Shown: piece by piece, positions 47,837 through 64,000 of the stretch
Layout of the letters: each line of letters opens with the position of its first letter
Position numbering within the stretch: position 1 is the first letter of the stretch
From: Thermodesulfobacteriota bacterium
GTDB lineage: Bacteria > Desulfobacterota_D > UBA1144 > Nemesobacterales > Nemesobacteraceae
Assembly: GCA_965202785.1 (NCBI GenBank)
Contig: OZ241855.1
Coordinates: 869,088-933,087, forward strand
Reading direction: 5' to 3'
DNA: 64,000 nucleotides
Position numbers and translations under genes: made by a program
Notes under the pieces: generated by a model
What the model saw: the letters and a program-made list of their open reading frames with translations, nothing else
The model's database searches: none
What the model was told of the DNA's origin: nothing

Positions 47837-48922
47837 TTGTTGATTTCTCCTTTTAAAAAATTGGCTTTCGGTAAACTTCACCGCCCAGATTCGCTCCCTG
47901 AAGGGAAAGATGCCGTGGCTGGAATAGATATAGGCTCAAGTTCCGTTAAGGTTGTGGAACTTTCCTACAGGGGTGGAAACTACCGGCTTGAGAATATGGG
48001 AGAGGCTATGCTTCCTAGAGATGCGGTAATCCGCAAGTCGATTTCAAGGGGCGACATAGTTTCGGGGGTTGTATCAAGTCTCGTTTCTAGGCTCGGTGTG
48101 AGAACGAAAAAGGCGGTTATAGGGGTTTCCGGCGAAGCTGTTGCTTTAAAAGTCGTCAATGTTCCCAGAATTTTTCTCAGAAAGGATATGGAAAAGCTTG
48201 TTCCGGACCTTGTGAGAACCAGTCTTTGCAGAAACGTTAACGGGGTTAATTACAGCTACACTCCGCTTTTCCGCCGCAACGGAAAATCCGAAGAGACTCA
48301 GGTGCTGGTTGCGGCAGTTTCGAAAAAAACGGCGCAGGAGTATAAAAGTTCGCTTTTCTCGGCGGGCCTTCGCGCCCGGGTAATTGATGTTGACGCCATG
48401 GCTCTTTCAAACAGCTACGCAACTTTTTGCCGAGGTCGCGGTCAAAAGGTGGCGCTTGTGAACATCGGAGCGTCAGGGACTAACTTGAGCGTTTTGGACG
48501 GCACAGTGCCTTTTATACTGAGGGATATTCCGCTTGGAGGGCAATGGATTACGCTTCGTTTGATGGAGAAATTCGAAATTACCTACGAGGAGGCGGAGAG
48601 AATAAAGTTCAGCATTAAGGGTTATGGCAGATATGACGAGATAGAAAGTGTTTTCACTGATTTCGTTGCTCGTGCCATAGATGAGATAAAGATGGTTCTT
48701 GACGAAGCTGGAGACGTAATCGACCAAATAATTCTTTCCGGTGGATCTTCAAGAATAGCAACTCTCGCCGATACGCTTGGAGAGGCTACGGGGGTTCCGG
48801 TCGAGATTTCGAATCCTTTTCGAAACATCACTGTTTCGGATTCGCATTTTGATCCTGAATACATTGAACATCTGGCCCCAAAGATGGCGGTTGCGGTGGG
48901 GCTTGCGCTCAGGGGTTTGTGA
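47837..48922 (+). CDS. pilM: PilM-like actin-fold ATPase (type IV pilus assembly protein PilM family)
   Basis: AGIDIGSSSVKVVEL phosphate-1 motif, VIDVDAMAL, IGASGTNLSV, and the ILSGGSS adenosine motif. Full PilM/FtsA-like length. No pilN/O/P/Q downstream. Confidence 0.7.
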   Translation: MLISPFKKLAFGKLHRPDSLPEGKDAVAGIDIGSSSVKVVELSYRGGNYRLENMGEAMLPRDAVIRKSISRGDIVSGVVSSLVSRLGVRTKKAVIGVSGEAVALKVVNVPRIFLRKDMEKLVPDLVRTSLCRNVNGVNYSYTPLFRRNGKSEETQVLVAAVSKKTAQEYKSSLFSAGLRARVIDVDAMALSNSYATFCRGRGQKVALVNIGASGTNLSVLDGTVPFILRDIPLGGQWITLRLMEKFEITYEEAERIKFSIKGYGRYDEIESVFTDFVARAIDEIKMVLDEAGDVIDQIILSGGSSRIATLADTLGEATGVPVEISNPFRNITVSDSHFDPEYIEHLAPKMAVAVGLALRGL

Positions 48923-49256: not shown

Positions 49257-51215
49257 ATGGCAAGTAAAAGAGAATCGCGGATTCTAAAACTGCTCAGTCA
49301 AAAAGAGGGAAGAAGCCTCTCCGAGGGCAATATTCTCCGAGGGCTTGATATGCCCGAGAGAAAAAGAAAAAATCTCCGTGCCGCACTTGAGCGTATGGTT
49401 CTTGAGGGCACGATCAGAAGGACTTCTAAAGGGCGCTACCGCCTCGGAAAATATGAAAAAAAACCCGCCGGGCAAGACCACCGGCGTCCGAATTTTCCCG
49501 GTCACACCTTAAACGGGAACCGGAAAAATATCGGATCGAACGGCCTGTCCAACGGGAACTCCCTGAGGGTTTTGGCCGATCTGCGAAAAACCCCAAAGGG
49601 TTTTGTTGCATGCCCGAGAAAGGCGGAGATTCCCGAGTGTGAGATTGAAAGCAGAGGTGGGGAAAGGAGCTTCTCCGACGGGGAACTCGTGGTTATAGAG
49701 ATTGGACTTGGGAAGACATCGGCGAGAGTGACCGAGCGTCTTGGGGTATCCGGAGAGATTGAAACTGAAAAGAAGGGGATTATCTCCGAGTATGGTCTTC
49801 CGAAGGGTTTTTCGCGCAGCGTGACCAAAGAAGTCGGCAACCTGAGCGCGGAACTTCCAAACGGTGATCTTTCGGCGAGGGTGAATCTTGAGAGGGAAAA
49901 CATTTTCACCATAGACGGGGATGACGCAAAGGATTTTGACGATGCCGTGGGCATAAAAAGAATCCGCAAGGGCAAGGGATACAGACTCTGGGTAAGCATA
50001 GCGGATGTTTCTCATTACGTGCTATCCGGGAGTGCGTGCGATGAGGAGGCCGCGCGCAGGGCTACCAGCACCTATCTCTCGGACAGGGTTATTCCCATGC
50101 TTCCCAAGCGGCTCTCGAATGATCTCTGCAGCCTGCGGCCGAAAAAAAGACGGCTTACCAAAACAGTCGAGATGGATTTTGATTCCTCGGGAAGGCTTAA
50201 GGACTCAAGGATATACAACAGCGTGATCAAAAGCTCTGCGAGACTTACCTATTCCAAGGCCGCGGCCGTTTTGGAAGGAAACAGCACTGCCTCATCCTCG
50301 CTCAGTAAAAGTATAACTTCTTCCCTGATTGTGATGAGAGAGCTCTATGGCAAGCTCAAGGAGCTTAGAATCGGAAAAGGAGGTCTTGACTTTGATTTCC
50401 CCGAGGCCGTGCTTCTTCGCAATTCCTCAGGAGAGGTAAGGGACGTCGACAGGCTTAAGCGAAACACGGCCCACGAGATAATAGAGGAGTTCATGATCAT
50501 GGCCAACTCCGTAGTTGCGGAGTTTGTCTTTAGAAACGGTTTTGAATCGATCTACAGAATTCACGAGCCCCCGGATCCGGATTCAATAAAGCAGCTGCGC
50601 GAAAGCCTTCTCAAAATAGGAATCAAGGCGAACCTGGGAGCAAGAGCAAAACAGCCTGACATCCAGGCGGTGATGAAGACCGCTTCGGGAAGACGGGACC
50701 GGGAGCAGATAAACTTCATGATTCTGCGCGCGCTTAAAAAAGCTGTCTACTCGACAAAGCATATTCCCCATTTCGGTCTTGCGATAGACGATTACACTCA
50801 TTTCACTTCGCCCATAAGAAGATATCCCGATCTTGTTGTTCACAGGATTGTCGACGACATACTGGAGAAAAAAGACCCTTCCTACGATTCTGCTCTTCTC
50901 AAAAAGATCGCCGAACGCTGCTCAATTCTGGAGAGGACGGCCGAGGGTGCGGAACGTCAGTTTATGAACCTCGAGACCGCGAATTTCATGAAAACCCGCG
51001 TGGGCGAAGTCTTCCACGGGAAAATACTCAGCATACATCCCTTCGGAGTCTTCATAGAAATAAAGGAACACTTCGTCGAAGGACTCATCCCCGAGCACTT
51101 TTACAAACACAAGGGCAAGAAAAGAAAGTGGTTTGAACTCGGAGAAGGTGTTCGCGTAAAGCTCGTGTCGGCCGATCTGGAAAGAAGAAGGCTCACCTTT
51201 GATCTGGTATCCTGA
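49257..51215 (+). CDS. rnr: Ribonuclease R
   Basis: N-terminal winged HTH; RNB domain (FTIDGDDAKDFDDAVG); C-terminal S1 (GEVFHGKILSIHPFGVFIEI). 652 aa. Confidence 0.85.
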   Translation: MASKRESRILKLLSQKEGRSLSEGNILRGLDMPERKRKNLRAALERMVLEGTIRRTSKGRYRLGKYEKKPAGQDHRRPNFPGHTLNGNRKNIGSNGLSNGNSLRVLADLRKTPKGFVACPRKAEIPECEIESRGGERSFSDGELVVIEIGLGKTSARVTERLGVSGEIETEKKGIISEYGLPKGFSRSVTKEVGNLSAELPNGDLSARVNLERENIFTIDGDDAKDFDDAVGIKRIRKGKGYRLWVSIADVSHYVLSGSACDEEAARRATSTYLSDRVIPMLPKRLSNDLCSLRPKKRRLTKTVEMDFDSSGRLKDSRIYNSVIKSSARLTYSKAAAVLEGNSTASSSLSKSITSSLIVMRELYGKLKELRIGKGGLDFDFPEAVLLRNSSGEVRDVDRLKRNTAHEIIEEFMIMANSVVAEFVFRNGFESIYRIHEPPDPDSIKQLRESLLKIGIKANLGARAKQPDIQAVMKTASGRRDREQINFMILRALKKAVYSTKHIPHFGLAIDDYTHFTSPIRRYPDLVVHRIVDDILEKKDPSYDSALLKKIAERCSILERTAEGAERQFMNLETANFMKTRVGEVFHGKILSIHPFGVFIEIKEHFVEGLIPEHFYKHKGKKRKWFELGEGVRVKLVSADLERRRLTFDLVS

Positions 51216-51277: not shown

Positions 51278-52399
51278 TTACCTTGAGATAGCATCCGGCA
51301 AGCGGTAGCTTGTGCTTCGTCCGCCACCGGGGTTCTGAATAAAAATCCCGCGTGACTTTAGGTCTTGGATATCCCTTAGTGCCGTGTCGGGAGAGCACTT
51401 GGCCAGTTTAGCATATTTTGAGGTATTCATATGCCCTTTAAAACCATCTTCTAGCATGCGATTAATAATCAGACGCTGACGTTCATTGACAGGTCGCCGA
51501 TTAACTTTTTCCCATAGTTGCGCTTTAAACAAGACAGCGCTCAGTGCCTCTTCGGCGTTGGCAATAGCGCGGCCGAAGCAATCCAAGAACCATTCAAGCC
51601 AACCCGTTACCTCCGGCGCGCTGCGCTGCTGCTTTTCCAGTTGGTCATAATAATCCTTACGCTCAGATTCAAATTGCGATGAAAGGCTGTAAAAGCGGTG
51701 CGGCATGCCGTCAGCGCGCGCCAGGGCCATATCGGCAATCGCTCTACCAATACGTCCATTACCATCTTCAAATGGATGAACCGTCACAAACCACAAATGA
51801 GCAATACCGGCTCTGAGCACAGGGTCAGTATCATCTTTGCTCTCAAACCATGCCAGAAACTCTGTCATCTCATGCTCAAGACGCTCCGCATCCGGGGCTT
51901 CAAAATGAACTTTTTCACGTCCAATAGGGCCAGAAACCACTTGCATTGAACCTGATTCCGCGGAGCGCCATCCACCGACTGCGATACGACGCATGCCGCT
52001 ACGACCAGTTGAAAATAGCGCGGCATGCCAGTCAAACAGCCTCTCTTTTGTTAAGGGTTTGGCAGATTGCTGAGTCGCATCCAGCATGATTTCGACAATC
52101 CCTTCGACATCTCGGTTCACTGGCACGGGGCTAGCGATATGAATGCCCAGTCGGCGGGCGATTGACGAACGAACCTCTCGGGGATTCAGATTTTCCCCCT
52201 CGATGGCCGATGATTTAACAACGTCGCTTGTCAAAGTGCTTAGACTTGCTTCTCTCTTCAGTTCAAAACCTAATCCTTCCATTCTGCCTAATAAACGGCC
52301 CTGACGGTGCCGAATATCTGCAAGCTTAGAAGCGAGTTTTCCGCTGTCCCAAGTGAAGTCCGGCCAACTCTGATGTTTGTATATCCACATGTTATTCAC
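51278..52399 (-). CDS. Fic family protein (AMPylase/adenylyltransferase type) with C-terminal winged HTH
   Basis: Fic motif HPFEDGNGRIGR. The N-terminal SSAIEGEN (Fic_N / inhibitory [S/T]xxxE[G/N]-like) region. 373 aa. AT-rich. Confidence 0.85.
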   Translation of the reverse strand: MNNMWIYKHQSWPDFTWDSGKLASKLADIRHRQGRLLGRMEGLGFELKREASLSTLTSDVVKSSAIEGENLNPREVRSSIARRLGIHIASPVPVNRDVEGIVEIMLDATQQSAKPLTKERLFDWHAALFSTGRSGMRRIAVGGWRSAESGSMQVVSGPIGREKVHFEAPDAERLEHEMTEFLAWFESKDDTDPVLRAGIAHLWFVTVHPFEDGNGRIGRAIADMALARADGMPHRFYSLSSQFESERKDYYDQLEKQQRSAPEVTGWLEWFLDCFGRAIANAEEALSAVLFKAQLWEKVNRRPVNERQRLIINRMLEDGFKGHMNTSKYAKLAKCSPDTALRDIQDLKSRGIFIQNPGGGRSTSYRLPDAISR

Positions 52400-52619
52400 C
52401 GTATTATTTGCAGTGATTATAACCTTGTTCTCCGTAGAAGCAAGAAAAATTGCCGCAAAATATGCGGTGAATGAAATCGCTATTCACCGCATAGCGCCAA
52501 GTTCTCTTGATAGCGTATCCATCCAGCCGGCAGGATGCATCAAATAAAACATAAAATTTGCATGGTAGATTATATTTCAAAGGTTGTAATTTGTATCATT
52601 GCCTATCGTGGAGTATGTG

Positions 52620-53162
52620 ATGGAACTTGAAACACTCTGGCAGAAATATAGAGCTAATATAAAAGCATTTTTACATTCAAGGGTTTCTAATCCAGACGAT
52701 GTTGATGACTTGTTGCAGGAGGTATTAATCAAAACCTACAAAAACCTCGACACGCTTGCCTCAGAAAACAGCATCAAGCCATGGCTGTTCCAGGTTGCAA
52801 ACAATACGATTATTGACTTTTACCGCAAAAAAGGACGTCTGAATAAGTTCATACATGACGACTTTCATTTGGATGAAGAAGATTCTGATACACAAGATGA
52901 GCTTGCGCGGTGCATAGAGTCTTTCATTAAAAACCTGCCACAACAGAATGCAGAACTTTTAACAGTTATTGATATAAAAGGTCGATCGCAAAAAGAGTAT
53001 GCAGAGGAGACAGGCGTTAGTTATTCCACACTTAAATCCCGTGTGCAAAAAAGCCGAGATTTGTTGCGAAAGCTCTTTGATGATTGCTGTCATTTATCTT
53101 TTGACCAATTTGGCAGAGTTATTGAATACACTCCAAAGTCAGGCGATTGTAAAAATTGTTAA
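52620..53162 (+). CDS. ECF-type sigma-70 family RNA polymerase sigma factor (SigZ-like) with a C-terminal Cys-rich extension
   Basis: Region 2 (DDLLQEVLIKTYKNL...PWLFQVANNTIIDFYRKK) and region 4 (AELLTVIDIKGRSQKEYAEETGVSYSTLKSRVQKSRDLLRK) are recognisable. A C-terminal tail CCHLSFDQFGRVIEYTPKSGDCKNC follows. GGAG RBS. Confidence 0.8.
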   Translation: MELETLWQKYRANIKAFLHSRVSNPDDVDDLLQEVLIKTYKNLDTLASENSIKPWLFQVANNTIIDFYRKKGRLNKFIHDDFHLDEEDSDTQDELARCIESFIKNLPQQNAELLTVIDIKGRSQKEYAEETGVSYSTLKSRVQKSRDLLRKLFDDCCHLSFDQFGRVIEYTPKSGDCKNC

Positions 53163-53229
53163 GTTTTTTTCGTCTTTTTTGTTTGCTGCACGTCTTACAG
53201 GTAAAGCAACCAAAAAATAGGAGTTAAAG

Positions 53230-53937
53230 ATGATTAAAGTTATCAGCTTCAAAATTTGTCCATTCGTTCAGCGCGTGACTGCTTTGCTTGAAGCTAAGAA
53301 TTTGCCGTATGAACTGGAATACGTTGACCTAGGCAAGAAACCGCAATGGTTTTTAGACATATCACCAACAGGACAAGTTCCTGTGCTGATTACGGAAGAT
53401 GGAACGGCATTATTTGAATCCGATGCTATCGTTGAATATCTGGATGAGGTTTTTGAACCTTTAGAATCCGATCTTACGCCGGAACAACGTGCTCTTGATC
53501 GCGCATGGAACTATCAAGCCACAAAACATTACCTTGTGCAATGTTCTGCACAACGTAGTGCTGATAAAGATACTCTTATAGAGCGTTCAGCAAAATTGGG
53601 TAAAGCGTTTGAAAAAGCCGAAAAAGCTCTGGGCGAAGGTCCATATTTTAAAGGAAAAACATTCAGCAATGTTGATGTTGCCTGGATACCTTTACTTCAT
53701 CGCGCGGCAATTACTGAAAAACATAGCTGCTATGATTTCTTGGCTCAATATCCGAAGGTCAAGGCATGGCAGGCTTCACTTTTAAAAACGGATGTGGTGA
53801 CAAACTCGGTTGCAGATGATTTTGAGAAAGCTTTTACGGGTTTTTATTTATCTGATGAAACTTTTCTGGGTAAATATAAAGAGTGCTCTACAGAGCCATT
53901 TAGTAGAAAATCCTGTGAAGCGTATGAATGTTGCTAG
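53230..53937 (+). CDS. Glutathione S-transferase family protein
   Basis: N-terminal thioredoxin-like GST domain (FKICPFVQRV...PTGQVPVL...ESDAIVEYL) and a helical C-terminal domain. AGGAG RBS. Confidence 0.8.
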   Translation: MIKVISFKICPFVQRVTALLEAKNLPYELEYVDLGKKPQWFLDISPTGQVPVLITEDGTALFESDAIVEYLDEVFEPLESDLTPEQRALDRAWNYQATKHYLVQCSAQRSADKDTLIERSAKLGKAFEKAEKALGEGPYFKGKTFSNVDVAWIPLLHRAAITEKHSCYDFLAQYPKVKAWQASLLKTDVVTNSVADDFEKAFTGFYLSDETFLGKYKECSTEPFSRKSCEAYECC

Positions 53938-54046
53938 GATTTGAATTATGCGGAAATGCATATGACTAAAATCTGATGCGTTAGAATAGAATAAAGCCAT
54001 GTGTTTCCCGTTCTCAGAGTTCGAGAATGTGAACAACTGTACTGAG

Positions 54047-54137
54047 TGGCGGAGGGAGTGGGATTCGAACCCACGAGGGCCAAAAAGACCCCACTGGTTT
54101 TCGAGACCAGCGCCTTAAACCACTCGGCCATCCCTCC
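54047..54137 (-). tRNA. tRNA-Ser (anticodon CGA)
   Basis: The reverse complement GGAGGGATGGCCGAGTGGTTTAAGGCGCTGGTCTCGAAAACCAG...long variable arm...GGTTCGAATCCCACTCCCTCCGCCA folds as a class II tRNA. Anticodon loop CTCGAAA. Confidence 0.85.
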
Positions 54138-54230
54138 CGACCCGCAAAACAGGCTACCGAAGCCCGAGGGGCAAGGCAACATCTCCCGGGAAGTTTTGTT
54201 ATTAACCCCTCCGTGTAAAATTAAGCGGAT

Positions 54231-56735
54231 ATGATTGAGGACTACTTTACCCCCGAAGCCGCTGAATTCATCAGAGAGTCGATAACCGAGGCCCACGGAA
54301 ACGAGGTTTTTTTCGTCGGCAAGGTAGACGAAGGCTCTCTGGTGTATGATGTGAAAGTCCTTGCACGCGGTAACCGCCAAGCGGTTCCGGCCATCCTTGA
54401 CGCGGCGAAAACGGGGAACGTCGTTGTGCATAATCATCCCTCAGGCAACCTCGAACCTTCACCTCAGGATGTGGCAGTCGCTTCGGCTTTCGGAAACAAA
54501 GGCGTCGGTTTCTACATAGTGGACAGTGAGGTCGAGAAGGTGTACGTAGTTGTTGAGCCTTTTGTTCCGGGGGAAACGGTACGCGTTGACAATGAATCCG
54601 CGAGGGAATATCTTCTGCCTGCGGGTCCCGTGGCCCGTGTCTTGGGAGAGAAATACGAACACAGGGACGAACAGCTGGAAGTCCTCTCAAACGTAATCGA
54701 TGCATTCAACGACGAGCACCTCTCAATGATAGAGGCCGGCACGGGAACCGGAAAAACTCTTTCCTATCTCATACCTTCCATTCTCTGGTCAATTAGCAAC
54801 AATGAGAGGGTTTTGGTCTCAACAAATACCATCAATCTTCAGGAACAGCTGATAAACAAGGATCTTCCTCTCCTTCGGGATCTTTTTCCGAGGAAGTTTG
54901 ATTATGCTCTCGTTAAAGGAATGAGAAACTACTTCTGTCTTCTCCGGGGCGAAGCCGTCGGGCAGGATCTTTTCGATTTTATAGACGACGGTGAAAGAGG
55001 GTCGATGAAGGATGTGCTTGAGTGGGCCAAGACCACCGCGGACGGTTCACTTTCCGATCTTGCGTTTACACCCCCTGACGATGTATGGGACAGGGTATCT
55101 GCGGAAAGCGAAAGCTGCCCGGGGACCAAGTGCCCTCATTATTCGAGTTGCTTTTTCTTTAAGTCGCGGAGGGAGCTATCGAGGGCTTCGGTGCTGGTTG
55201 CCAACCACCACATGCTTTTTTCCGATATTGCGATAAAAGGAACTGCGGGACCCGATTCGGATTTCGGGATAATTCCCCGCTACGCAAAGGTCGTTTTTGA
55301 TGAGGCGCACAACATTGCCGAGGCGGCTACTTCACATTTCAGCCTGAAGCTTAGCAAGCACGGGATTGCGAGGACCCTCTCAAAGCTTCGTTCCCGGAAA
55401 AATAGGGACAAGGGGCTTGTATCATACATCTCGCACCTTGCGCAGAAAGAAAAAGATTCCGCCCTCAGGGAGGTTTTCGAGCGCTCGGGTGGCGGGCTTG
55501 CGAAGGCCGTTGAGCGTATAGAGGTTGTAAGCGAAGAGGTCTTTAATTCGCTTTACGGTTTTGGGGTGGAGCTCTCGGGTGAGACAGCGATAAGCCTGAG
55601 GCTCACAGAAGAGGTTGTGCGGCACGAGAAATGGCCTGCCGTTGAGGAGCGCTTCGGGGCACTTGAAAAATCCCTTTTTTCGCTTGAAAGGGAGATTGCC
55701 CACCTGCTGGGAGTAGTCGAGGGCTCACCGCACGCGGATTCCCACATAAAACTCACCGCTGAACTTGGTGGCATCGCCAAGAGATCCCTTGCTTTCCGCG
55801 AAGCCATAGGAAGGTTTTTTGGCGAGCAGGACGAGAGTTATATAAGGTGGTTTGAGGGGAACCGCAGAAGGGCGGCGATTTTCTGCTCCATCAACCTTTC
55901 CCCCCTTGATGTATCCAAGGAGCTTGATGAAAAGCTCTACTCGAAGACCAAAACCGTCGTTATGACTTCCGCATCGCTTGCCGTGGATAAGAACTTCGAT
56001 TTCCAGAGGAAAAACATAGGACTTTCGGATAATGAAAGATTCAGGGGGCTTATTGTTGATTCACCGTTTGATTTCCGAACGCAGTCCTTACTGCTGGTCC
56101 CCTCGGACATGCCCGAGCCTGGGCGCGAGGACTACGAAGATTCCCTTGCGCGGATACTCTCAGACTCGATTTCTGTAACGAACGGAAATGCTCTGGTGCT
56201 TTTCACCTCCTACTCCTCGCTTAACAGGGTTTATGAAAAGACAGGAAAAATCCTTGAGAGCATCGGGACCGTCCCGGTCAGTCTTTTCAAGCAGGGAGAA
56301 ATGCCTAGGGGCCTGTTGCTTGAGAAATTCAAAACGCTTGGGAATTCGGTGCTTTTCGCAACCGACAGCTTCTGGGAAGGAGTAGACATTCCCGGGGATT
56401 CCCTGAAGATGGTCGTCATATGCAGACTTCCCTTCAAGGTCCCCACGGATCCGGTTACGGAGGCGAAAATCGAGTACATGGAAAATCAGGATATAGATTC
56501 ATTCCGCGAATACATACTTCCCCATGCCGTACTCAGGTTCAAGCAGGGTTTCGGAAGACTCATACGCACCAAGACGGACCGCGGTGTTGTTATGGTTCTT
56601 GATAAGCGTATCGTGTCGAAGTACTACGGGAAATTCTTTATCAACTCCGTTGCGGGGAGTGACTTTTTCTGCGGAAAGACGGAGCAGATACTCGGGCGGA
56701 TGCGGAATTTTTTCTCCGAGGAGCGAAAGCATTGA
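54231..56735 (+). CDS. dinG: DinG-family (XPD-like) ATP-dependent DNA helicase fused to an N-terminal JAB/MPN (RadC-like) metalloprotease domain
   Basis: The N-terminal 110 aa carry a complete JAMM motif: E (TEAHGNE)...HNHPSGNLEPSPQD = HxHx7Sx2D. Then come helicase motif I AGTGTGKTLSYL, FeS-domain cysteines (CLLRG...CPGTKCPHYSSC), DEAH box VVFDEAHN, and C-terminal helicase motifs. 834 aa. Confidence 0.8.
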   Translation: MIEDYFTPEAAEFIRESITEAHGNEVFFVGKVDEGSLVYDVKVLARGNRQAVPAILDAAKTGNVVVHNHPSGNLEPSPQDVAVASAFGNKGVGFYIVDSEVEKVYVVVEPFVPGETVRVDNESAREYLLPAGPVARVLGEKYEHRDEQLEVLSNVIDAFNDEHLSMIEAGTGTGKTLSYLIPSILWSISNNERVLVSTNTINLQEQLINKDLPLLRDLFPRKFDYALVKGMRNYFCLLRGEAVGQDLFDFIDDGERGSMKDVLEWAKTTADGSLSDLAFTPPDDVWDRVSAESESCPGTKCPHYSSCFFFKSRRELSRASVLVANHHMLFSDIAIKGTAGPDSDFGIIPRYAKVVFDEAHNIAEAATSHFSLKLSKHGIARTLSKLRSRKNRDKGLVSYISHLAQKEKDSALREVFERSGGGLAKAVERIEVVSEEVFNSLYGFGVELSGETAISLRLTEEVVRHEKWPAVEERFGALEKSLFSLEREIAHLLGVVEGSPHADSHIKLTAELGGIAKRSLAFREAIGRFFGEQDESYIRWFEGNRRRAAIFCSINLSPLDVSKELDEKLYSKTKTVVMTSASLAVDKNFDFQRKNIGLSDNERFRGLIVDSPFDFRTQSLLLVPSDMPEPGREDYEDSLARILSDSISVTNGNALVLFTSYSSLNRVYEKTGKILESIGTVPVSLFKQGEMPRGLLLEKFKTLGNSVLFATDSFWEGVDIPGDSLKMVVICRLPFKVPTDPVTEAKIEYMENQDIDSFREYILPHAVLRFKQGFGRLIRTKTDRGVVMVLDKRIVSKYYGKFFINSVAGSDFFCGKTEQILGRMRNFFSEERKH

Positions 56736-56744
56736 ATTTCTTAC

Positions 56745-57131
56745 ATGTATAAAGCGAAAAACGGTGAAAGGGAACGGCTGGAGAATGTTTTCAGAAGACT
56801 GGGCAGGTCCCGGTTCCGTTCTGGGTTCAGGCTGAATGCCAAGGAAACATTGTATCTCAGGCAAAAAGGCCTCCCCGAGGTGCTTTCGCACGGAAGGGAT
56901 TTTCTTGAAAAAAGGCTTGCCCCCTCTCTGCCCCCTAACGACGGGAAGCAGACTCCATGGGGTGGACATCCTGTGTTTCGTGCCCAGCATGCCACGGCCA
57001 CGTGCTGTCGGAGCTGCCTACTAAAATGGCACGGCATCCCTAAAAAAAGAAAGCTTACGGAACGGGAAATTGATTATATTCTTCTGGCAATTGAAATGTG
57101 GCTTTCGGCTCAGAGCAGCCCGCAGGAGTGA
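56745..57131 (+). CDS. Hypothetical protein (DUF4186-like)
   Basis: A 128-aa ORF with the conserved-looking TATCCRSCLLKWHGI segment. Family name is recalled from memory and not verified. Confidence 0.4.
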   Translation: MYKAKNGERERLENVFRRLGRSRFRSGFRLNAKETLYLRQKGLPEVLSHGRDFLEKRLAPSLPPNDGKQTPWGGHPVFRAQHATATCCRSCLLKWHGIPKKRKLTEREIDYILLAIEMWLSAQSSPQE

Positions 57132-57189: not shown

Positions 57190-59331
57190 ATGGAGCCAGA
57201 AACCATGGATGAAGAGACGCCAACTCTGCCCAAGCTTGTAAAGGATGAGATCGACGAATTCGAACAGCAGATCTCTGACTACATGAACGGGAAGATAAGC
57301 GAGGTGAAATTCCAGAAGATAAGACTCCAGTTGGGAGTGTACGCACAACGCCAGGAAGGAGTCCAGATGCAGAGGATAAAGATTCCCTACGGGAAACTGA
57401 GTTCTGCTCAATTGAGAAAACTTGCGGACGTTTCAGACAAGTACGCAAGTGGCTTCTTTCACCTTACGACCCGTCAGGACACTCAGCTTTACTACGTCAA
57501 CCTTGAAACAGTTCCCGACATGATGAGGGATCTTGCAAGTGCGGGGATCACAACTCGTGAAGCCTGCGGCAACACAGTAAGAAACGTCACGGCTTCCCCG
57601 ATAACCGGAGCTTCGCCTACGGAAACCTTTGACGTGACTCCTTACGCCGAGGCGTTTAAGCAGTTTATGCTCCGAAACCCCATATGCCAGAACATGGGAA
57701 GGAAATTCAAGGTCTGCTTTGAGAGCAATCCGGATGTCGACAATGCGGGAATCCGCATCCATGATCTGGGTTTTCGCGCCAGGGTAAGGGAAGAGGATGG
57801 AAAGCACGGCTTTCAGGTCTACGTCGGCGGGGGGCTCGGCGCTTCGCCTTCGCTTGGACATCTCTGGACGGAGTTCATGCCGGTTGAGGAGATGATACCT
57901 TTTTCGGCTTCGGTCGTCAGGATCTTTGACAGGTACGGAGAGAGAAAGGTCAGGATGAAGGCCAGGATGAAGTTTCTTGTGAGGAAGCTCGGTTTTGAGA
58001 AGTTCAGAGAGGTAGTCGAGCAGGAAAGGGCTTCGCTTGAGGTCGATCCTTCATGGAACGACTATCTTGAGGCGATTGACCGGGAGCACGAAACTCCAAA
58101 GCCGAACGGGCACGATCTTCCGGACACTCCTGGCTGGGTGGAGGATGACCCGGATTTTACGGAGTGGCGGCAAAAAAACGTTTCTCCGGCAGGGGTCGAG
58201 GGATATTCAATCGTTAATGTGAGGGTGCTTCTGGGGGACGTTCCGTCCGATACCGCGAGAGCGCTTGCGGACATGATAGATGCTTATGCAGACGGCTCCA
58301 TAAGGATAACTATCCAGCAGAATTTCGTGATTAGATGGGTTCCCGATCAGGTCATACCCTCGCTTTACGCCGACCTTAAGGAAGCGGACATTTCTGGTTC
58401 GGGTGCAGACACTTTCGAAGATGTAACCGCCTGCCCGGGTGCCGATACCTGCCGTCTGGGCATCACTTCGGCCAAGGGCCTTGCGACGAAGCTTACCAGC
58501 ATGATGGATAACGGTCTTGGGAAATACAAGGAGACTCTCGGGGATCTCAGGATCAAAATATCCGGCTGTCCCAACGCTTGCGCTCAGCATGTTTCGGCCA
58601 GCATAGGGTTCCAGGGAGCGTCCATAACCAGAGAAGGTAGAAGCGTTCCTGCGGAGATGCTTTTCCTCGGCGGAGGACTTTACGGAGACGACTCGCGCCT
58701 TGCTATGCCGGTTACCAAAATTCCGACCAGAAACGCTCCCAAGGTTGTCCAGAGACTGCTTGAGATATACGAGAGGGAAAAAGAAGACGGTGAACATTTT
58801 GACCTCACTATGAAAAGGCTCGGCGCCAAGTACATCAAGGAAGCGGTTTCCGAGTTCAACGAGATCCCCTCGTACGAGGATGATCCCGATTTTTACACCG
58901 ACTGGGGACACGAAGAGAAAAAATTTGCTGTGCAGCAGGGAGTAAGAGGGGAGTGCGCGGGGGTTACCGTCGAGGAGAAAATCCCGGTCTTCTCAGATGC
59001 TGAGAGGCGTCTTGAGCAGGCCCAGGCTCTTTTTCTCCACGGCGACTACGAGGCATGCATAAACGAGCTTTATCTGGCATGCTCCGAGAGTGCCCATGTT
59101 CCTCTCTACACCAAGCTTATCGATCCGTTCACTCCTGAGCAGACGATATGGGAGTTTGAAAACCTTATCGTGAGAACCGGGGAGACTGATGAGAAATGGC
59201 TTGATGTCTCGCGCAAGTTCAGCGAATACAGGGGAGGAGAGGCTTCGGCGTCAAAAGCTATAGAGTTCCTTGAAGTCGCAAAGAGTTTCCACTCTGACTG
59301 CGAGAAGGTTCAGGAGCAGCTGACCGCGTAA
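57190..59331 (+). CDS. Nitrite/sulfite reductase family protein (siroheme-[4Fe-4S] hemoprotein type) with a C-terminal extension
   Basis: Two NIR_SIR ferredoxin-like halves with cluster cysteines (TACPGADTCRLG, SGCPNACAQH). 713 aa. The last ~170 aa have no recognised domain. Confidence 0.75.
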   Translation: MEPETMDEETPTLPKLVKDEIDEFEQQISDYMNGKISEVKFQKIRLQLGVYAQRQEGVQMQRIKIPYGKLSSAQLRKLADVSDKYASGFFHLTTRQDTQLYYVNLETVPDMMRDLASAGITTREACGNTVRNVTASPITGASPTETFDVTPYAEAFKQFMLRNPICQNMGRKFKVCFESNPDVDNAGIRIHDLGFRARVREEDGKHGFQVYVGGGLGASPSLGHLWTEFMPVEEMIPFSASVVRIFDRYGERKVRMKARMKFLVRKLGFEKFREVVEQERASLEVDPSWNDYLEAIDREHETPKPNGHDLPDTPGWVEDDPDFTEWRQKNVSPAGVEGYSIVNVRVLLGDVPSDTARALADMIDAYADGSIRITIQQNFVIRWVPDQVIPSLYADLKEADISGSGADTFEDVTACPGADTCRLGITSAKGLATKLTSMMDNGLGKYKETLGDLRIKISGCPNACAQHVSASIGFQGASITREGRSVPAEMLFLGGGLYGDDSRLAMPVTKIPTRNAPKVVQRLLEIYEREKEDGEHFDLTMKRLGAKYIKEAVSEFNEIPSYEDDPDFYTDWGHEEKKFAVQQGVRGECAGVTVEEKIPVFSDAERRLEQAQALFLHGDYEACINELYLACSESAHVPLYTKLIDPFTPEQTIWEFENLIVRTGETDEKWLDVSRKFSEYRGGEASASKAIEFLEVAKSFHSDCEKVQEQLTA

Positions 59332-59349: not shown

Positions 59350-59784
59350 TTAGTAGCCTCCGGTTATATATTTCTTAAGTGCCTCGATCTCGAATTTCTG
59401 ACGGGAGATAATGTGGTTTATGATGTCGCCGCTCGTCACCATCCCGCAAAGTTTCCCATCTTCTATTACCGGAAGGTGCCTTATCTTGTTCGCCGTCATG
59501 ATAGCCATACTTTCCTGAATCGGGTCGTCGGGCGAACCGTAGATCACATCCCTGATCATGAGTTCGCTTATTTTCGTGTTCGCCGATGACCTTCCCTGAA
59601 GGATAACCTTCCTCGCGTAGTCGCGCTCGGAGAATATCCCAACGACTTTTTCCCCGTCAAGCACGAGCAGAGCACCTATTTCTTTTTCCGCCATCATCTG
59701 AAGGGCTTTATACACGGTTTCATCCGGTCCTATCGACCATACGCTGCTGCCCTTGTGTTTAAGTATGTGTCTTAGATTTTCCAT
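59350..59784 (-). CDS. CBS domain-pair protein
   Basis: Two CBS motifs (ALLVLDGEKVVGIFSERD and LPVIEDGKLCGMVTSGDI). 144 aa. Confidence 0.75.
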   Translation of the reverse strand: MENLRHILKHKGSSVWSIGPDETVYKALQMMAEKEIGALLVLDGEKVVGIFSERDYARKVILQGRSSANTKISELMIRDVIYGSPDDPIQESMAIMTANKIRHLPVIEDGKLCGMVTSGDIINHIISRQKFEIEALKKYITGGY

Positions 59785-60040: not shown

Positions 60041-60736
60041 ATGGGTAAGACCGAAGAACTTAAAAAGGCCGCGGGTATAAAAGCCGTTGACTTCGTGCGC
60101 GCGGGAATGCTTGTCGGACTCGGCACCGGGTCGACTGCGGAGTTTGCCATCGAAGAGCTCTCAAAGCGGGTAAGAGACGGCCGGCTTTCGGACATATCCT
60201 GCGTTCCAAGCTCTGAGAGAACGAAAAATTTCGCCGAAGCCATGGACCTCGATCTCGTTGAGCTCGATTCGGCAAGGAGGATTGACGTCACTATTGACGG
60301 AGCGGATGAAATCGATTCCGATTTTAACCTTATTAAAGGGGGCGGAGGCGCCCTTCTAAGGGAGAAGATTCTCGCGCAGAACAGCAAAAGAAACATAATC
60401 GTTGCTGACGAATCGAAGCTATCGCGGCGGCTCGGAGAGCGTTTTCCCGTTCCCGTCGAGGTGCTTCAGTTTGCCCTTGAAGCTGAAAAGGGCTACCTCG
60501 AGAGTCTTGGAGGAGGGGTCCACTTGCGACTCGCTCGCGACGGTTCCCCGTTTTTGACAGATCAGGGCAATCTTATTGTCGACTGGGGTTTTGGAGAGAT
60601 GGACGACCCCTCTTTTTTCGCCGACCGGTTGTCAGCAAGGGCCGGGATAGTCGAGCACGGCCTTTTCATAGGTACCGCGAACGATATCATAGTAGCTTTC
60701 TCCCGGGAAGTGAAGCACTGGCAACCAGGCTCGTAA
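60041..60736 (+). CDS. rpiA: Ribose-5-phosphate isomerase A
   Basis: GMLVGLGTGSTA motif and DGADE catalytic region. 231 aa. Confidence 0.9.
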   Translation: MGKTEELKKAAGIKAVDFVRAGMLVGLGTGSTAEFAIEELSKRVRDGRLSDISCVPSSERTKNFAEAMDLDLVELDSARRIDVTIDGADEIDSDFNLIKGGGGALLREKILAQNSKRNIIVADESKLSRRLGERFPVPVEVLQFALEAEKGYLESLGGGVHLRLARDGSPFLTDQGNLIVDWGFGEMDDPSFFADRLSARAGIVEHGLFIGTANDIIVAFSREVKHWQPGS

Positions 60737-60811: not shown

Positions 60812-62542
60812 TCAGATAAAAAAACGGGCGATTTTCCGTATGCTCTCTGAGGCGTCAGACGTAATGCCGATTCTTATAATGCCCCTTCCCATTTCGTCAA
60901 GAGACTTGAAGTCTCCCGTGGCCTGAGCCATTTTGAGTACTTGGAAAGAGAATACTGATTCCGCAGAACCGACATCATCAGGTATGCACAGATCGTTTTT
61001 GTTATCGCTTACAATCTGAATGAAAAACCCTTCTCCGGAGTCTCCTTTGTGAAGCTGGCCCGTTGAGTGGAGAAATCTCGGGCCGAAACCCAGAGTTACG
61101 GGCACGGATGATATGCTTTCGATCTGCGTGCGCAGGGAAAGAAGCTCTTTTGAATTTTCTTCTGCGGGGTCTACGTAGGCCTGAATCGATACGTAACCTC
61201 TTTTCTTCGAAGAGATGATATCTCTTAGCTGTCCTGGGGATTCTATTTTTCTGTTGCTGGAGAAAGCAAGCCCGTTTTTAGAAAAATCGGGTTCTTTGGA
61301 TTCAAGTTTGCCCGTTTCCCTGTAGAGCTTGAGAAAATTTCTTGCAAAGGCTTTTGCGGATTCGACATCGGGCTGGTCGAAGGGATTTATTCCCATTATG
61401 CTTCCGGCAAGTGCGACGGCAAACTCAAAGCGGAAAAGTTCTGCGGCTATCTGGTCGGGACTGTCAACTACTATCTTCACGAAGGGAATCTTAGAGTCCT
61501 TGATGCGCGAGGCGACCATATCCACAGTTCTGTCTTCCCTCAGCGAAAGAAGAATGTATGCCCTGTCATCTCCGGGCCGCGGACAGTCCGAGACCTCTTC
61601 ATCAAGCAGCGGAAGTATGCCGACGCCGTTTTTTCCGGTACTTTCAGCGATCAGCTGCTCCACCCAGTAGCCGAAAGGAAAAAGTTTTTCCGAAAAAACA
61701 AAACCCAGTTTATCTCTTCCCTGTTCGGCCATGACCCCGAGAAAGGTCCCTAGGCGAAAGGAAGGACTCTCGTGGCATTTTCCTCCGACTGAGTTTTCAA
61801 GTTCAAGCAGTACGGAAGATGCCGATTGAAGTATCTTGCGTATATCGACTCCTGCGAGGGATGCGGGAACGAGGCCGAAGTAGGAAAGCGCGCTGAATCT
61901 CCCGCCGACATTCGGATCGTTGATAAAAACCCTGCTGAAACCATGTTCGTCGGCAGTTTGGATGAGTTTTGAGCCAGGGTCCGTTATGCAGATGAAATGT
62001 TCTCCCGGGGAGCCGGTTTTTCTCGTGAGTTCTCCGTAAAAGTATTTCATGAGGGAAACGGTTTCCACGGTCGAGCCTGATTTTGAAGAAACTACAAAGA
62101 GAGTTCTCAGAAGATCTATGCTTTCCCGGGTCTTAAGAATGAAGTCGGGATCCGTGGTATCAAGAAGAGTGAGCCGCAAAAAGCCGTCGCGGAGGGTAAA
62201 TATGTTTCTGAACACCTCGGAGGAGAGACTTGAGCCTCCCATGCCTAAAACAACGACGTCGGTGAACCCTTTTTTTCTTATGGATTCTGAGAAGTCGTCA
62301 ATTTCGTTTATTGCCGTGAGCATCTGCTTCGGAAGATGGACCCAGCCGAGGCGATTTGTGATCTCGGAAGGATTGTCTGCCCAGAGCAGATGATCGTAGT
62401 CGAAGAATCTTTCGGCAAAACGGTTTTTCTCAAGTTCGAGGAGTTGAGATTGGATTATACTTTCGTAATTGCCCGCGTATTCAGTGTAGTTTTGTGACTC
62501 GAAACTGACTTTGTTCTTAGTGGACACGGCACTAGTTACCAA
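60812..62542 (-). CDS. pgi: Glucose-6-phosphate isomerase (SIS-domain PGI)
   Basis: VVVLGMGGSSL, VVSSKSGSTVET and GGRFSALSYFGL, which are PGI signature regions. Confidence 0.8.
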   Translation of the reverse strand: MVTSAVSTKNKVSFESQNYTEYAGNYESIIQSQLLELEKNRFAERFFDYDHLLWADNPSEITNRLGWVHLPKQMLTAINEIDDFSESIRKKGFTDVVVLGMGGSSLSSEVFRNIFTLRDGFLRLTLLDTTDPDFILKTRESIDLLRTLFVVSSKSGSTVETVSLMKYFYGELTRKTGSPGEHFICITDPGSKLIQTADEHGFSRVFINDPNVGGRFSALSYFGLVPASLAGVDIRKILQSASSVLLELENSVGGKCHESPSFRLGTFLGVMAEQGRDKLGFVFSEKLFPFGYWVEQLIAESTGKNGVGILPLLDEEVSDCPRPGDDRAYILLSLREDRTVDMVASRIKDSKIPFVKIVVDSPDQIAAELFRFEFAVALAGSIMGINPFDQPDVESAKAFARNFLKLYRETGKLESKEPDFSKNGLAFSSNRKIESPGQLRDIISSKKRGYVSIQAYVDPAEENSKELLSLRTQIESISSVPVTLGFGPRFLHSTGQLHKGDSGEGFFIQIVSDNKNDLCIPDDVGSAESVFSFQVLKMAQATGDFKSLDEMGRGIIRIGITSDASESIRKIARFFI

Positions 62543-64000
62543 GCAGTTCGAGGCATTCCTTGAGGATGGTTTCCGCGTTAAACCCGAAGTTGTTCATCAC
62601 GTCGCGGCTTGGTGCGGATTCTCCGAAGCAGTCTATTCCGTAGGCCTTGGCGGCAGGGCCCGGTCCCGTGAACTTTTCCCATCCGAACGTTGCTCCGGCT
62701 TCGACACTTAATCTTGTACTGACAGAAGGCGGCAGGACGCTGTCTTTGTACTTCTGGGACTGAGCTTCGAAAAGACTCCAGCACGGAAGGCTTACAACTC
62801 TTGGATTTTTCTTCATCTCGCGCAGTTTTTCATAAACTTCAAGACAGACATGAACTTCGGAACCCGTGGATATCAGTACGATGTCAGGCATGCCGTCTGA
62901 ATCTGCAAGTACATAGCCGCCCGCGAGCGCTCCCTCGGGCGCGGCGTAACGGTCCCTGTCTATTATCGGAACATTCTGTCTTGTGAGAACGAACGCGGCG
63001 GGACGGTCAGAAAGTCCCATCACGTGTTTCCAAAGAATCGCAAGCTCGTTCGCGTCGCAGGGACGGATGACATCGATGTTGGGCGTGACTCTGAGGCTTG
63101 TCAGATGCTCAATCGGCTGATGAGTGGGTCCGTCCTCGCCTACCCCTATGCTGTCATGAGTGAAAATGTAGATCACGGGAAGTTTCATCAGGGCCGCAAG
63201 CCTTATCGAAGGTTTCATGTAATCGGCAAACACGAAATAGGTCGAGGCATAGGCTCTGAGTCCGCTGAGACACATGCCGCTTGCTATCGCGGCCATTGAA
63301 TGCTCCCTGACTCCGAAATGAAAGTTTCTTCCCTCGCGGTCCTCGGCGGAAAAGCTCGTCGCACACTTAAGATAGGTTTTTGTCGAGGAGCCTACATCCG
63401 CGGCGCCGCCCATGAACCACGGCACTTTTTCTCCTATGGCGTTAATTATGCTTGAATTCGCAGAACGGGTCGCAACCGGGTCTGCGGGATAAGGAAAAGA
63501 CGGGATGTTGCTGTCCCATCCCTCAGGCAGCTTCTTTTTATCAACCATCTCAAACTCGTGAGCGAGTTCCGGGTATTCGTTTGAATACTTCCTGAAATTT
63601 TCCCTCCAAGCCGCTTCGGCATCGTTTCCTCTGGCGATCGCTCCTTCCCTGTAAGAGAGGATCTCGTCGGGAATGTGAAAGTTCCCCGGGGCATCCCACC
63701 CGTAAAATTCCTTTACCAGCCTGACTTCTTCTTCTCCAAGCGGCGCTCCGTGGGCCTCGCACGTGTTCTGCTTATTGGGGCTTCCGTACGCTATCTGGCT
63801 TTTCAATATTACAATGGAAGGCTTATCGGTTTCGGACCGCGCGCGCGCGAGGGCTTTTTCAATTTCCCCAAGATTGTTTGCGTCCGAGACTTTTTCCACG
63901 TGCCAGTTGTAGGATCCGAACCGCATCTCCGTGTCCTCAGAATACGCAAGCGAGGTGTTGCCCTCGATTGTTATGCTGTTGCTGTCGTATATCCAGATCA
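62532..64000 (-). CDS. tkt: Transketolase; partial, N-terminus lies beyond the window end
   Basis: The C-terminal 2/3 of transketolase (pyrimidine-binding and C-terminal domains; ...FGVREHSMAAIASG...). The reading frame stays open upstream of the listed Met to the window end. Followed by pgi and rpiA in a pentose-phosphate cluster. Confidence 0.85.
   Translation of the reverse strand, partial: IWIYDSNSITIEGNTSLAYSEDTEMRFGSYNWHVEKVSDANNLGEIEKALARARSETDKPSIVILKSQIAYGSPNKQNTCEAHGAPLGEEEVRLVKEFYGWDAPGNFHIPDEILSYREGAIARGNDAEAAWRENFRKYSNEYPELAHEFEMVDKKKLPEGWDSNIPSFPYPADPVATRSANSSIINAIGEKVPWFMGGAADVGSSTKTYLKCATSFSAEDREGRNFHFGVREHSMAAIASGMCLSGLRAYASTYFVFADYMKPSIRLAALMKLPVIYIFTHDSIGVGEDGPTHQPIEHLTSLRVTPNIDVIRPCDANELAILWKHVMGLSDRPAAFVLTRQNVPIIDRDRYAAPEGALAGGYVLADSDGMPDIVLISTGSEVHVCLEVYEKLREMKKNPRVVSLPCWSLFEAQSQKYKDSVLPPSVSTRLSVEAGATFGWEKFTGPGPAAKAYGIDCFGESAPSRDVMNNFGFNAETILKECLELLGN

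Follow-up and report, generated by a model that had tools for sequence, protein, structure and literature searches.

A RadC-like DinG gene of the Candidatus Dadabacteria/Thermodesulfobacteriota lineage joins a JAB/MPN+ zinc-site domain to an iron-sulfur helicase

What a RadC-type JAB/MPN domain does when it is joined to a DNA helicase is the question raised by the gene at positions 54231-56735 (forward strand) of a 64,000-nt stretch of contig OZ241855.1 (Thermodesulfobacteriota bacterium, assembly GCA_965202785.1), the whole of which is here called the window. Very probably, the product belongs to a known subgroup, "RadC-like DinG", and is, in general terms, a helicase-delivered Zn hydrolase. 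A preliminary description of the same DNA had reported an intact JAMM zinc site followed without interruption by a complete DinG helicase with an iron-sulfur (FeS) cluster, and had regarded the fusion as an unusual architecture. The gene and its parts are the following.

54231..56735, + strand: RadC-like DinG gene, a single 834-aa open reading frame (ORF) with ATG start and domain matches (orthologues at full length measure 830-840 aa)
54231..54566, + strand: RadC-type JAB/MPN+ domain, N-terminal, aa 1-112 (PF04002, AlphaFold2 (AF2), Foldseek)
54303..54305, + strand: codon of E25, predicted general-base Glu of the JAMM site (invariance)
54429..54470, + strand: zinc-binding motif H67-x-H69-x7-S77-xx-D80, HNHPSGNLEPSPQD (motif conservation)
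54567..54650, + strand: two-helix linker between JAB domain and helicase, aa 113-140 (AF2 helices, low conservation)
54651..56735, + strand: DinG/XPD-family superfamily 2 (SF2) helicase body, aa 141-834 (NCBIfam and PDB matches)
54735..54758, + strand: Walker A / motif I, A169-GTGTGK-T176 (G172, G174 and K175 invariant)
54936..55151, + strand: FeS-cluster domain with C236, C296, C301 and C307 (four invariant Cys, DEAD_2 match)
55299..55310, + strand: DEAH box, motif II, aa 357-360 (invariant)
56163..56651, + strand: Helicase_C_2, motor domain 2, aa 645-807 (PF13307, E=5e-46)

The reading frame runs through 834 codons with no internal stops, and the complete helicase behind the JAB domain, with Walker A, FeS cysteines and DEAH box in one ORF, was confirmed. 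The JAMM signature consists of E25 in GNEVFF and of H67-N-H69-PSGNLEP-S77-PQ-D80. The zinc site quoted earlier is indeed intact, with E25, H67, H69, S77 and D80 all present, and its glutamate within the "TEAHGNE" stretch is E25, not E20. In a six-frame scan of the whole window, the pattern HxHx7[ST]xxD had one uninterrupted match only, which is the JAB domain.

The domain search proposed in the preliminary description placed a RadC-like JAB domain (PF04002) at aa 10-86 with 27.9 bits, above the cut-off of 22.1. An AF2 model of aa 1-140, based on an alignment of 56 diverse N-terminal domains, reached a predicted local distance difference test (pLDDT) score of 95.9, and superseded a model from a shallow alignment of 17 close homologues with pLDDT 57. 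The element order of the modelled JAB domain was helix-strand-strand-strand-helix-strand-strand, and the linker helices were located at 121-128 and 133-138. With Foldseek, the best PDB match to the JAB model was RadC of Chlorobium tepidum (2QLC), followed by the Caldiarchaeum Rpn11 homologue, BubCD, AF2198/AfJAMM, CSN5, AMSH/Sst2 and PfJAMM1, all of which are JAB/MPN proteins; the same holds for nearly all other PDB matches listed. The same 2QLC was recovered by sequence when the family profile was run against PDB sequences (E=2.5e-7). Since Foldseek ranks JAB/MPN proteins highest and the family profile finds 2QLC, the earlier caution that the N-terminal region might prove to have another fold can be set aside; the domain has a JAB/MPN fold with the E...HxHx7SxxD zinc site of the JAMM/MPN+ class.

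On the helicase part, Pfam matches were DEAD/ResIII (aa 142-210), DEAD_2 (aa 304-377) and Helicase_C_2 (aa 645-807), and motor domain 1, a four-Cys FeS domain, the Arch domain and motor domain 2 are all present with intact ATP-binding motifs, as in RadC-like DinG. The top NCBIfam model for the helicase body was YoaA (NF053712, 541.3 bits, below the equivalog cut-off of 680), and the Bacillus-type DinG model PRK08074 gave 496.6 bits, below its cut-off of 789. The closest solved structures by sequence were E. coli DinG (6fwr, E=3.8e-49) and ExoDinG (8zef, E=2.8e-45). The polarity would be 5'->3', judging by the homology with E. coli DinG and other XPD-family enzymes. Residues 138-829 align to positions 252-930 of the 931 in PRK08074, i.e. 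to all that comes after its DnaQ exonuclease part, and no exonuclease Pfam match was found in the 834-aa protein. The JAB domain accordingly holds the place of the DnaQ exonuclease of Firmicute DinG, as had been proposed.

Fusions of RadC-type JAB domains to DinG were already described by Iyer et al. (NAR 2011, PMC3239186), and a 2025 review (PMC11981726) names the subgroup "RadC-like DinG", with Desulfuromonas soudanensis A0A0M4DKS9 and also Ca. Kuenenia A0A2C9CFG9 as its examples. When compared with the first 399 aa of A0A0M4DKS9, as printed in the supplement of the review, the window protein was 47% identical (E=2e-119) and colinear over aa 14-401, which places it in the family already described. 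JAB domain and helicase are on one polypeptide, with a catalytic centre of E25, H67, H69 and D80 (plus S77), and the architecture, similar length, E/H/H/D site, four FeS Cys and YoaA-like helicase body are those of the subgroup. Only the host lineage (metagenome-assembled genomes (MAGs) of Candidatus Dadabacteria/Thermodesulfobacteriota) and the neighbouring DUF4186 gene differ from the published examples, the protein organisation being alike. The architecture is thus neither unusual nor new, contrary to the preliminary description: it was published in 2011 and named in 2025, and its N-terminal domain is carried by 871 clusters at 50% identity.

The relation to other known systems is more distant. 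ExoDinG of Bacillus and Staphylococcus (PRK08074, 8zef) has a homologous helicase body and its extra catalytic domain is also N-terminal, but this belongs to the 3'-5' exonucleases of DnaQ/RNase H fold and has no relation to the JAB fold of the window protein, and neither a DnaQ-family domain nor a score above cut-off (PRK08074 / TIGR01407) assigns the window protein to ExoDinG. YoaA and E. coli DinG have the FeS SF2 5'->3' helicase core in common with the window protein but are without its N-terminal JAB domain, and the NF053712 score leaves the window protein outside YoaA. The YoaA partner HolC is absent from genomes having RadC-like DinG, according to the review (PMC11981726). The JAB signature HNHPSGxxxPSxxD is shared with RadC/YicR, whose structure 2QLC was the best PDB match by both sequence and structure. 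Canonical RadC, however, is a protein of ca. 220 aa with a helix-hairpin-helix (HhH) module at its N-terminus, whereas the window protein is a DinG fusion; against the full-length RadC models TIGR00608 and PRK00024 it scored 23.2 bits vs 180 and 19.2 bits vs 133.85, respectively, with the motif region alone aligning. The top matches of the N-domain profile were likewise DinG fusions, with no free RadC among them.

Conservation was assessed at several depths. A search of ca. 5.8 billion proteins returned thousands of relatives, and the best 120 examined were 831-855 aa long and carried the motif without exception (120/120), even where PF04002 was missing from the precomputed Pfam list. By scanning one genome per GTDB species, 77 distinct loci were obtained down to 36% identity, which span Candidatus Dadabacteria/Thermodesulfobacteriota, Hydrogenedentota, Nitrospirales, Spirochaetia, the FCB group and others, and which together with the window sequence make up 78 orthologues. 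In all of these (78/78), HNHPxGxxxPSxxD stands 104-105 residues ahead of Walker A in the same reading frame. The alignment of the 78 sequences contains 158 positions that are at least 97% conserved, and in the N-domain these include G23, E25, H67, N68, H69, P70, P76, S77 and D80. Invariant among the orthologues were E25, H67, H69, S77 and D80 (E25 also in the 56-sequence diverse alignment), as well as G172, G174, K175, the DEAH box at 357-360, and C236, C296, C301 and C307. Cross-phylum identity to the window protein was 47% in the JAB domain and 44-49% in the motor domains, 37% in the FeS domain, 24% in the linker and 20% in the Arch domain. The comparison across phyla shows a JAB site evidently under strong purifying selection.

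The census suggested earlier was made by running the N-domain profile against 1.84 billion representatives at 50% identity, which gave 871 proteins with E<=1e-3, 527 with E<=1e-10 and 178 with E<=1e-30. Among the best 150 of the 871 matches, 83 were full length (>=780 aa), 39 were truncated with Walker A at similar spacing (mostly 104-105 residues), 23 were fragments of at most 200 aa, and five were frameshifted or otherwise incomplete. The strict motif was present in 148 of these 150 representatives, and the other two differ by a lengthened loop alone. No free-standing form and no other architecture of the DinG-type JAB domain was met with among the best 150 matches, and because these were all fusions or fragments thereof, the JAB subfamily of RadC-like DinG appears to occur solely as a DinG fusion. 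The fusion is common and present in several phyla. Odd-length N-domain matches were inspected for alternative architectures, and those checked were fragments of the same fusion.

The N-domain contains a triplet "ARG" (A45-R46-G47), whose three residues each reach 97% conservation or more across the 78 aligned orthologues; among the diverse representatives G47 was invariant, A45 nearly so, and R46 slightly less conserved. Judged by the RadC consensus, R46 presumably is without counterpart in free-standing RadC. If situated near the Zn site, this conserved Arg could serve to bind a phosphate of the DNA or a carboxylate of the substrate.

As to the mode of action, the FeS helicase would load on single-stranded DNA and move 5'->3' with ATP, like E. 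coli DinG and the XPD family. The JAB site, a predicted single-Zn JAMM hydrolase tethered by the variable two-helix linker, would by this translocation be brought to whatever blocks the helicase, and unwinding would thereby be coupled to one hydrolytic step. To our knowledge, every characterised JAMM enzyme hydrolyses amide bonds, and peptidase is the activity of every structural neighbour for which one is known. In RadC-like DinG, the Glu and the Ser aiding JAMM amide hydrolysis are invariant. Since the chemistry points to a peptidase while the fusions and the domain position point to DNA, a DNA-targeted peptidase is the reading we prefer; its substrate would be a protein or peptide held fast on the DNA, either as a roadblock or in a DNA-protein crosslink, and opened by amide-bond hydrolysis, a tentative choice that we hold with somewhat less than even confidence. 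The lean towards peptidase over nuclease is slight, the latter being nearly as likely. The putative isopeptidase/peptidase of the preliminary description is one possibility among several.

Read as a peptidase, the protein would correspond, within one polypeptide, to the joint action of FANCJ, a DinG homologue, and the Zn protease SPRTN in eukaryotic DNA-protein crosslink repair. Crosslinked proteins are unfolded by FANCJ as it translocates into them, which opens them to cleavage by SPRTN (PMC12279946). The likeness is a functional analogy only, in that an XPD/DinG-family FeS helicase is paired with a Zn hydrolase for DNA-bound protein; FANCJ and SPRTN are separate proteins and SPRTN has a zincin (SprT) fold, whereas the window protein is a single polypeptide with a JAB fold. 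That it acts as a self-contained bacterial crosslink or roadblock enzyme, its helicase running 5'->3' into a DNA-bound protein that the JAB metallopeptidase would then cut, is a rather unlikely proposal.

Several points weigh against the proposed mode of action. Literature searches found no biochemical or genetic work on RadC-like DinG, and the review states that on this subgroup "no research has been conducted" (PMC11981726). For RadC itself no activity has been demonstrated, and the sensitivity of E. coli radC mutants to DNA damage is normal (Attaiech 2008, as cited in PMC11981726). RadC-type JAB domains are probably without a groove for a ubiquitin tail, and a nuclease has been favoured for them (Iyer et al.; PMC5512222). 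Nor does the gene context provide a partner. When the ORFs lying up to 4 kb to either side of the gene were clustered across 48 non-Dadabacteria loci, the recurrent neighbours were only PGI, a TPR membrane protein, response regulators and folE/folK/folB; neither this clustering nor the window neighbours yielded a conserved partner of repair, protease or ubiquitin-like type. No association with ubiquitin-like or E1/E2-like genes was seen either, the window neighbours being RNase II-like, tRNA, DUF4186, reductase, CBS, RpiA and PGI genes, with fol genes elsewhere.

That missing association speaks for a helicase-nuclease, in which the RadC-type JAB domain would be a metal-dependent nuclease or nucleic-acid processor that replaces the DnaQ exonuclease of ExoDinG, so that the enzyme unwinds and degrades or trims. 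The JAB domain sits where the closest helicase relatives carry an exonuclease (PRK08074 alignment from position 252), other RadC fusions join DNA modules such as HhH, ArdC-N and DnaG primase (PMC3239186, PMC5512222), and EndoDinG, with an N-terminal nuclease, is also listed in the 2025 review (PMC11981726). Iyer et al. (PMC3239186) noted that RadC-DinG helicases are closely related to forms carrying a 3'-5' exonuclease at the equivalent position, and proposed that the JAB domain might be a nuclease because of such non-homologous domain displacement, which is repeated in PMC5512222. Literature searches on RadC nuclease activity returned nothing informative. We consider a nuclease quite possible, at a likelihood of roughly one third. 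By another account, the JAB domain would be a non-catalytic module for DNA binding, dimerisation or regulation of an ordinary DinG/YoaA-like repair helicase, with which the resemblance of the helicase body to YoaA (541 bits) agrees. Catalytically dead MPN domains are common as scaffolds, e.g. Rpn8 and CSN6. Fusobacterial RadC-DinG versions have lost the Zn ligands (Iyer et al., PMC3239186). The five catalytic residues are nevertheless invariant in every orthologue examined, which a scaffold would not need, and this account is improbable.

Less probable still is a defence helicase, i.e. a CasDinG of type IV CRISPR or another anti-phage DinG placed on a tRNA-Ser islet. PADLOC did return "typeIV_DinG (associated)" with 435 bits, a generic "associated" DinG model, and 1.8 kb upstream there is a SoFic-like Fic gene, within a segment that is variable and in part low in GC. 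The NCBIfam Csf4 model TIGR03117, on the other hand, scored 101 bits against a cut-off of 400, so that the protein is not assigned to CasDinG/Csf4; no cas or csf genes were found among the flanking genes examined (47.8-64 kb) and no tandem repeat array in 40-64 kb. Moreover, synteny with housekeeping genes holds in 29 loci, the gene does not differ from its surroundings in GC content, and the Fic/sigma/GST segment varies and is situated on the tRNA's other side. An artefactual radC + dinG fusion through sequencing or assembly error, a check for which had been recommended, was rejected with near certainty: the one-ORF arrangement with identical spacing recurs uninterrupted in 77 independent assemblies, including complete chromosomes of 1.5-2.4 Mb, the fusion is also found among the database representatives of hundreds of clusters, and no supporting point was found for an error.

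As a discovery the fusion has little weight, having been published in 2011, named in 2025 and being common across several phyla, and what the Dadabacteria orthologue contributes is one more lineage and the conserved neighbour DUF4186, not a new principle. The fusion stays useful as a means of approaching the function of RadC-type JAB domains. Since the JAB domain is permanently tethered to a predictable helicase and the Zn site is strictly selected, the family would be a clean system for deciding between nuclease and peptidase on DNA-bound substrates. Were the crosslink/roadblock reading true, the RadC clade of JAB domains, the function of which has been disputed for decades, would also gain its first biochemical activity.

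The neighbouring features of the window, from 47.8 kb onwards, are the following.

47837-48922, + strand: PilM
49257-51215, + strand: RNase II-like (RNB + S1)
51278-52399, − strand: Fic/DUF4172
52599-53162, + strand: ECF sigma factor
53230-53937, + strand: GST
54047-54137, − strand: tRNA-Ser(CGA), divergent neighbour (ARAGORN)
54138..54230, no strand: conserved intergenic region separating the divergent tRNA-Ser and helicase genes (13 orthologous regions aligned)
56745-57131, + strand: DUF4186 (PF13811, E=6e-46)
57190-59331, + strand: NIR_SIR reductase
59350-59784, − strand: CBS
60041-60736, + strand: RpiA
60812-62542, − strand: PGI-like
62532-63926, − strand: transketolase

In Candidatus Dadabacteria the RadC-like DinG gene is part of the syntenic core, being chromosomal and inherited vertically. 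The tRNA-Ser(CGA) was at the same place in all five Dadabacteria-lineage loci scanned for it (L001, L004, L012, L025 and L029), and DUF4186 was downstream of DinG in 29/29 loci of the lineage, adjacent in 28 and ca. 3.7 kb off in one (L028), with the reductase usually next after it. This DUF4186 synteny holds down to 67% DinG identity, and in the window the start of the DUF4186 gene follows the helicase stop codon's last base by 10 nt (nine intervening bases). DUF4186 is the family of E. coli YneG, which is uncharacterised, and contains a conserved CCRxC...KWH stretch; literature searches on it returned nothing informative. In other phyla, DUF4186 was beside RadC-like DinG in 0/48 loci. It may be an operon partner within the Dadabacteria lineage, or merely retained synteny.

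The preliminary description had also placed the gene next to a tRNA-Ser-associated islet. The islet itself is real. The helicase gene, however, does not belong to its cargo, because the variable DNA among the 29 syntenic loci is confined to the other, 3' side of the tRNA, where in some genomes nothing separates the tRNA from the RNase gene and in many Fic alone does so. The Fic gene (51278-52399) is present or absent among close relatives, always between the RNase II-like gene and tRNA-Ser, and this presence/absence marks a small variable hotspot; the gene matched the PADLOC "SoFic" defence-candidate model at full length (E=6e-46). Among the Dadabacteria-lineage loci compared, the pair of ECF sigma factor and GST genes was seen in the window only. 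Neither gene was found in the ca. 6 kb upstream flank of the 29 syntenic loci, for which reason their segment looks like a recent insertion at the tRNA. The low-GC segment that carries them (52500-54000; GC 0.38-0.40 vs ca. 0.50 around) abuts the 3' end of tRNA-Ser(CGA). No att-like direct repeats of the tRNA-Ser 3' end were found around the upstream islet, and no integrase either. Both genes encode Cys-rich tails, the sigma factor ending in ...CCHLSFDQFGRVIEYTPKSGDCKNC and the GST in ...KECSTEPFSRKSCEAYECC.

The intergenic region between the tRNA and the helicase gene (54138-54230, 93 nt) is highly conserved among 13 orthologous loci. Within it, TGTAAAAT resembles an extended -10 element and ends 9 nt before the ATG, and may have a promoter role. 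No obvious Shine-Dalgarno sequence precedes the helicase gene, the arrangement of which suggests that its mRNA may be leaderless or near-leaderless. A scan for sigma-70 promoters and terminators gave sites no more often than shuffled controls, and did not flag the TGTAAAAT element.

In the non-Dadabacteria loci the surroundings are of another kind, made up of housekeeping genes with none for repair among them. About 33 of the 48 (within L031-L075, labelled as Hydrogenedentota or Nitrospirales) have a glucose-6-phosphate-isomerase-like gene ca. 430 nt downstream on the same strand and then a TPR membrane protein, and folE, folK and folB are often located upstream of RadC-like DinG. Two loci labelled "uncultured Spirochaetia" (L010 and L013, on two contigs of one MAG, CAYSDX01) encode DinG proteins 89-92% identical to that of the window and carry the full Dadabacteria synteny of DUF4186, reductase, CBS, RpiA and PGI. 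As the two DinG copies differ in identity, this suggests that the CAYSDX01 bin is mislabelled or a mix of two Dadabacteria strains.

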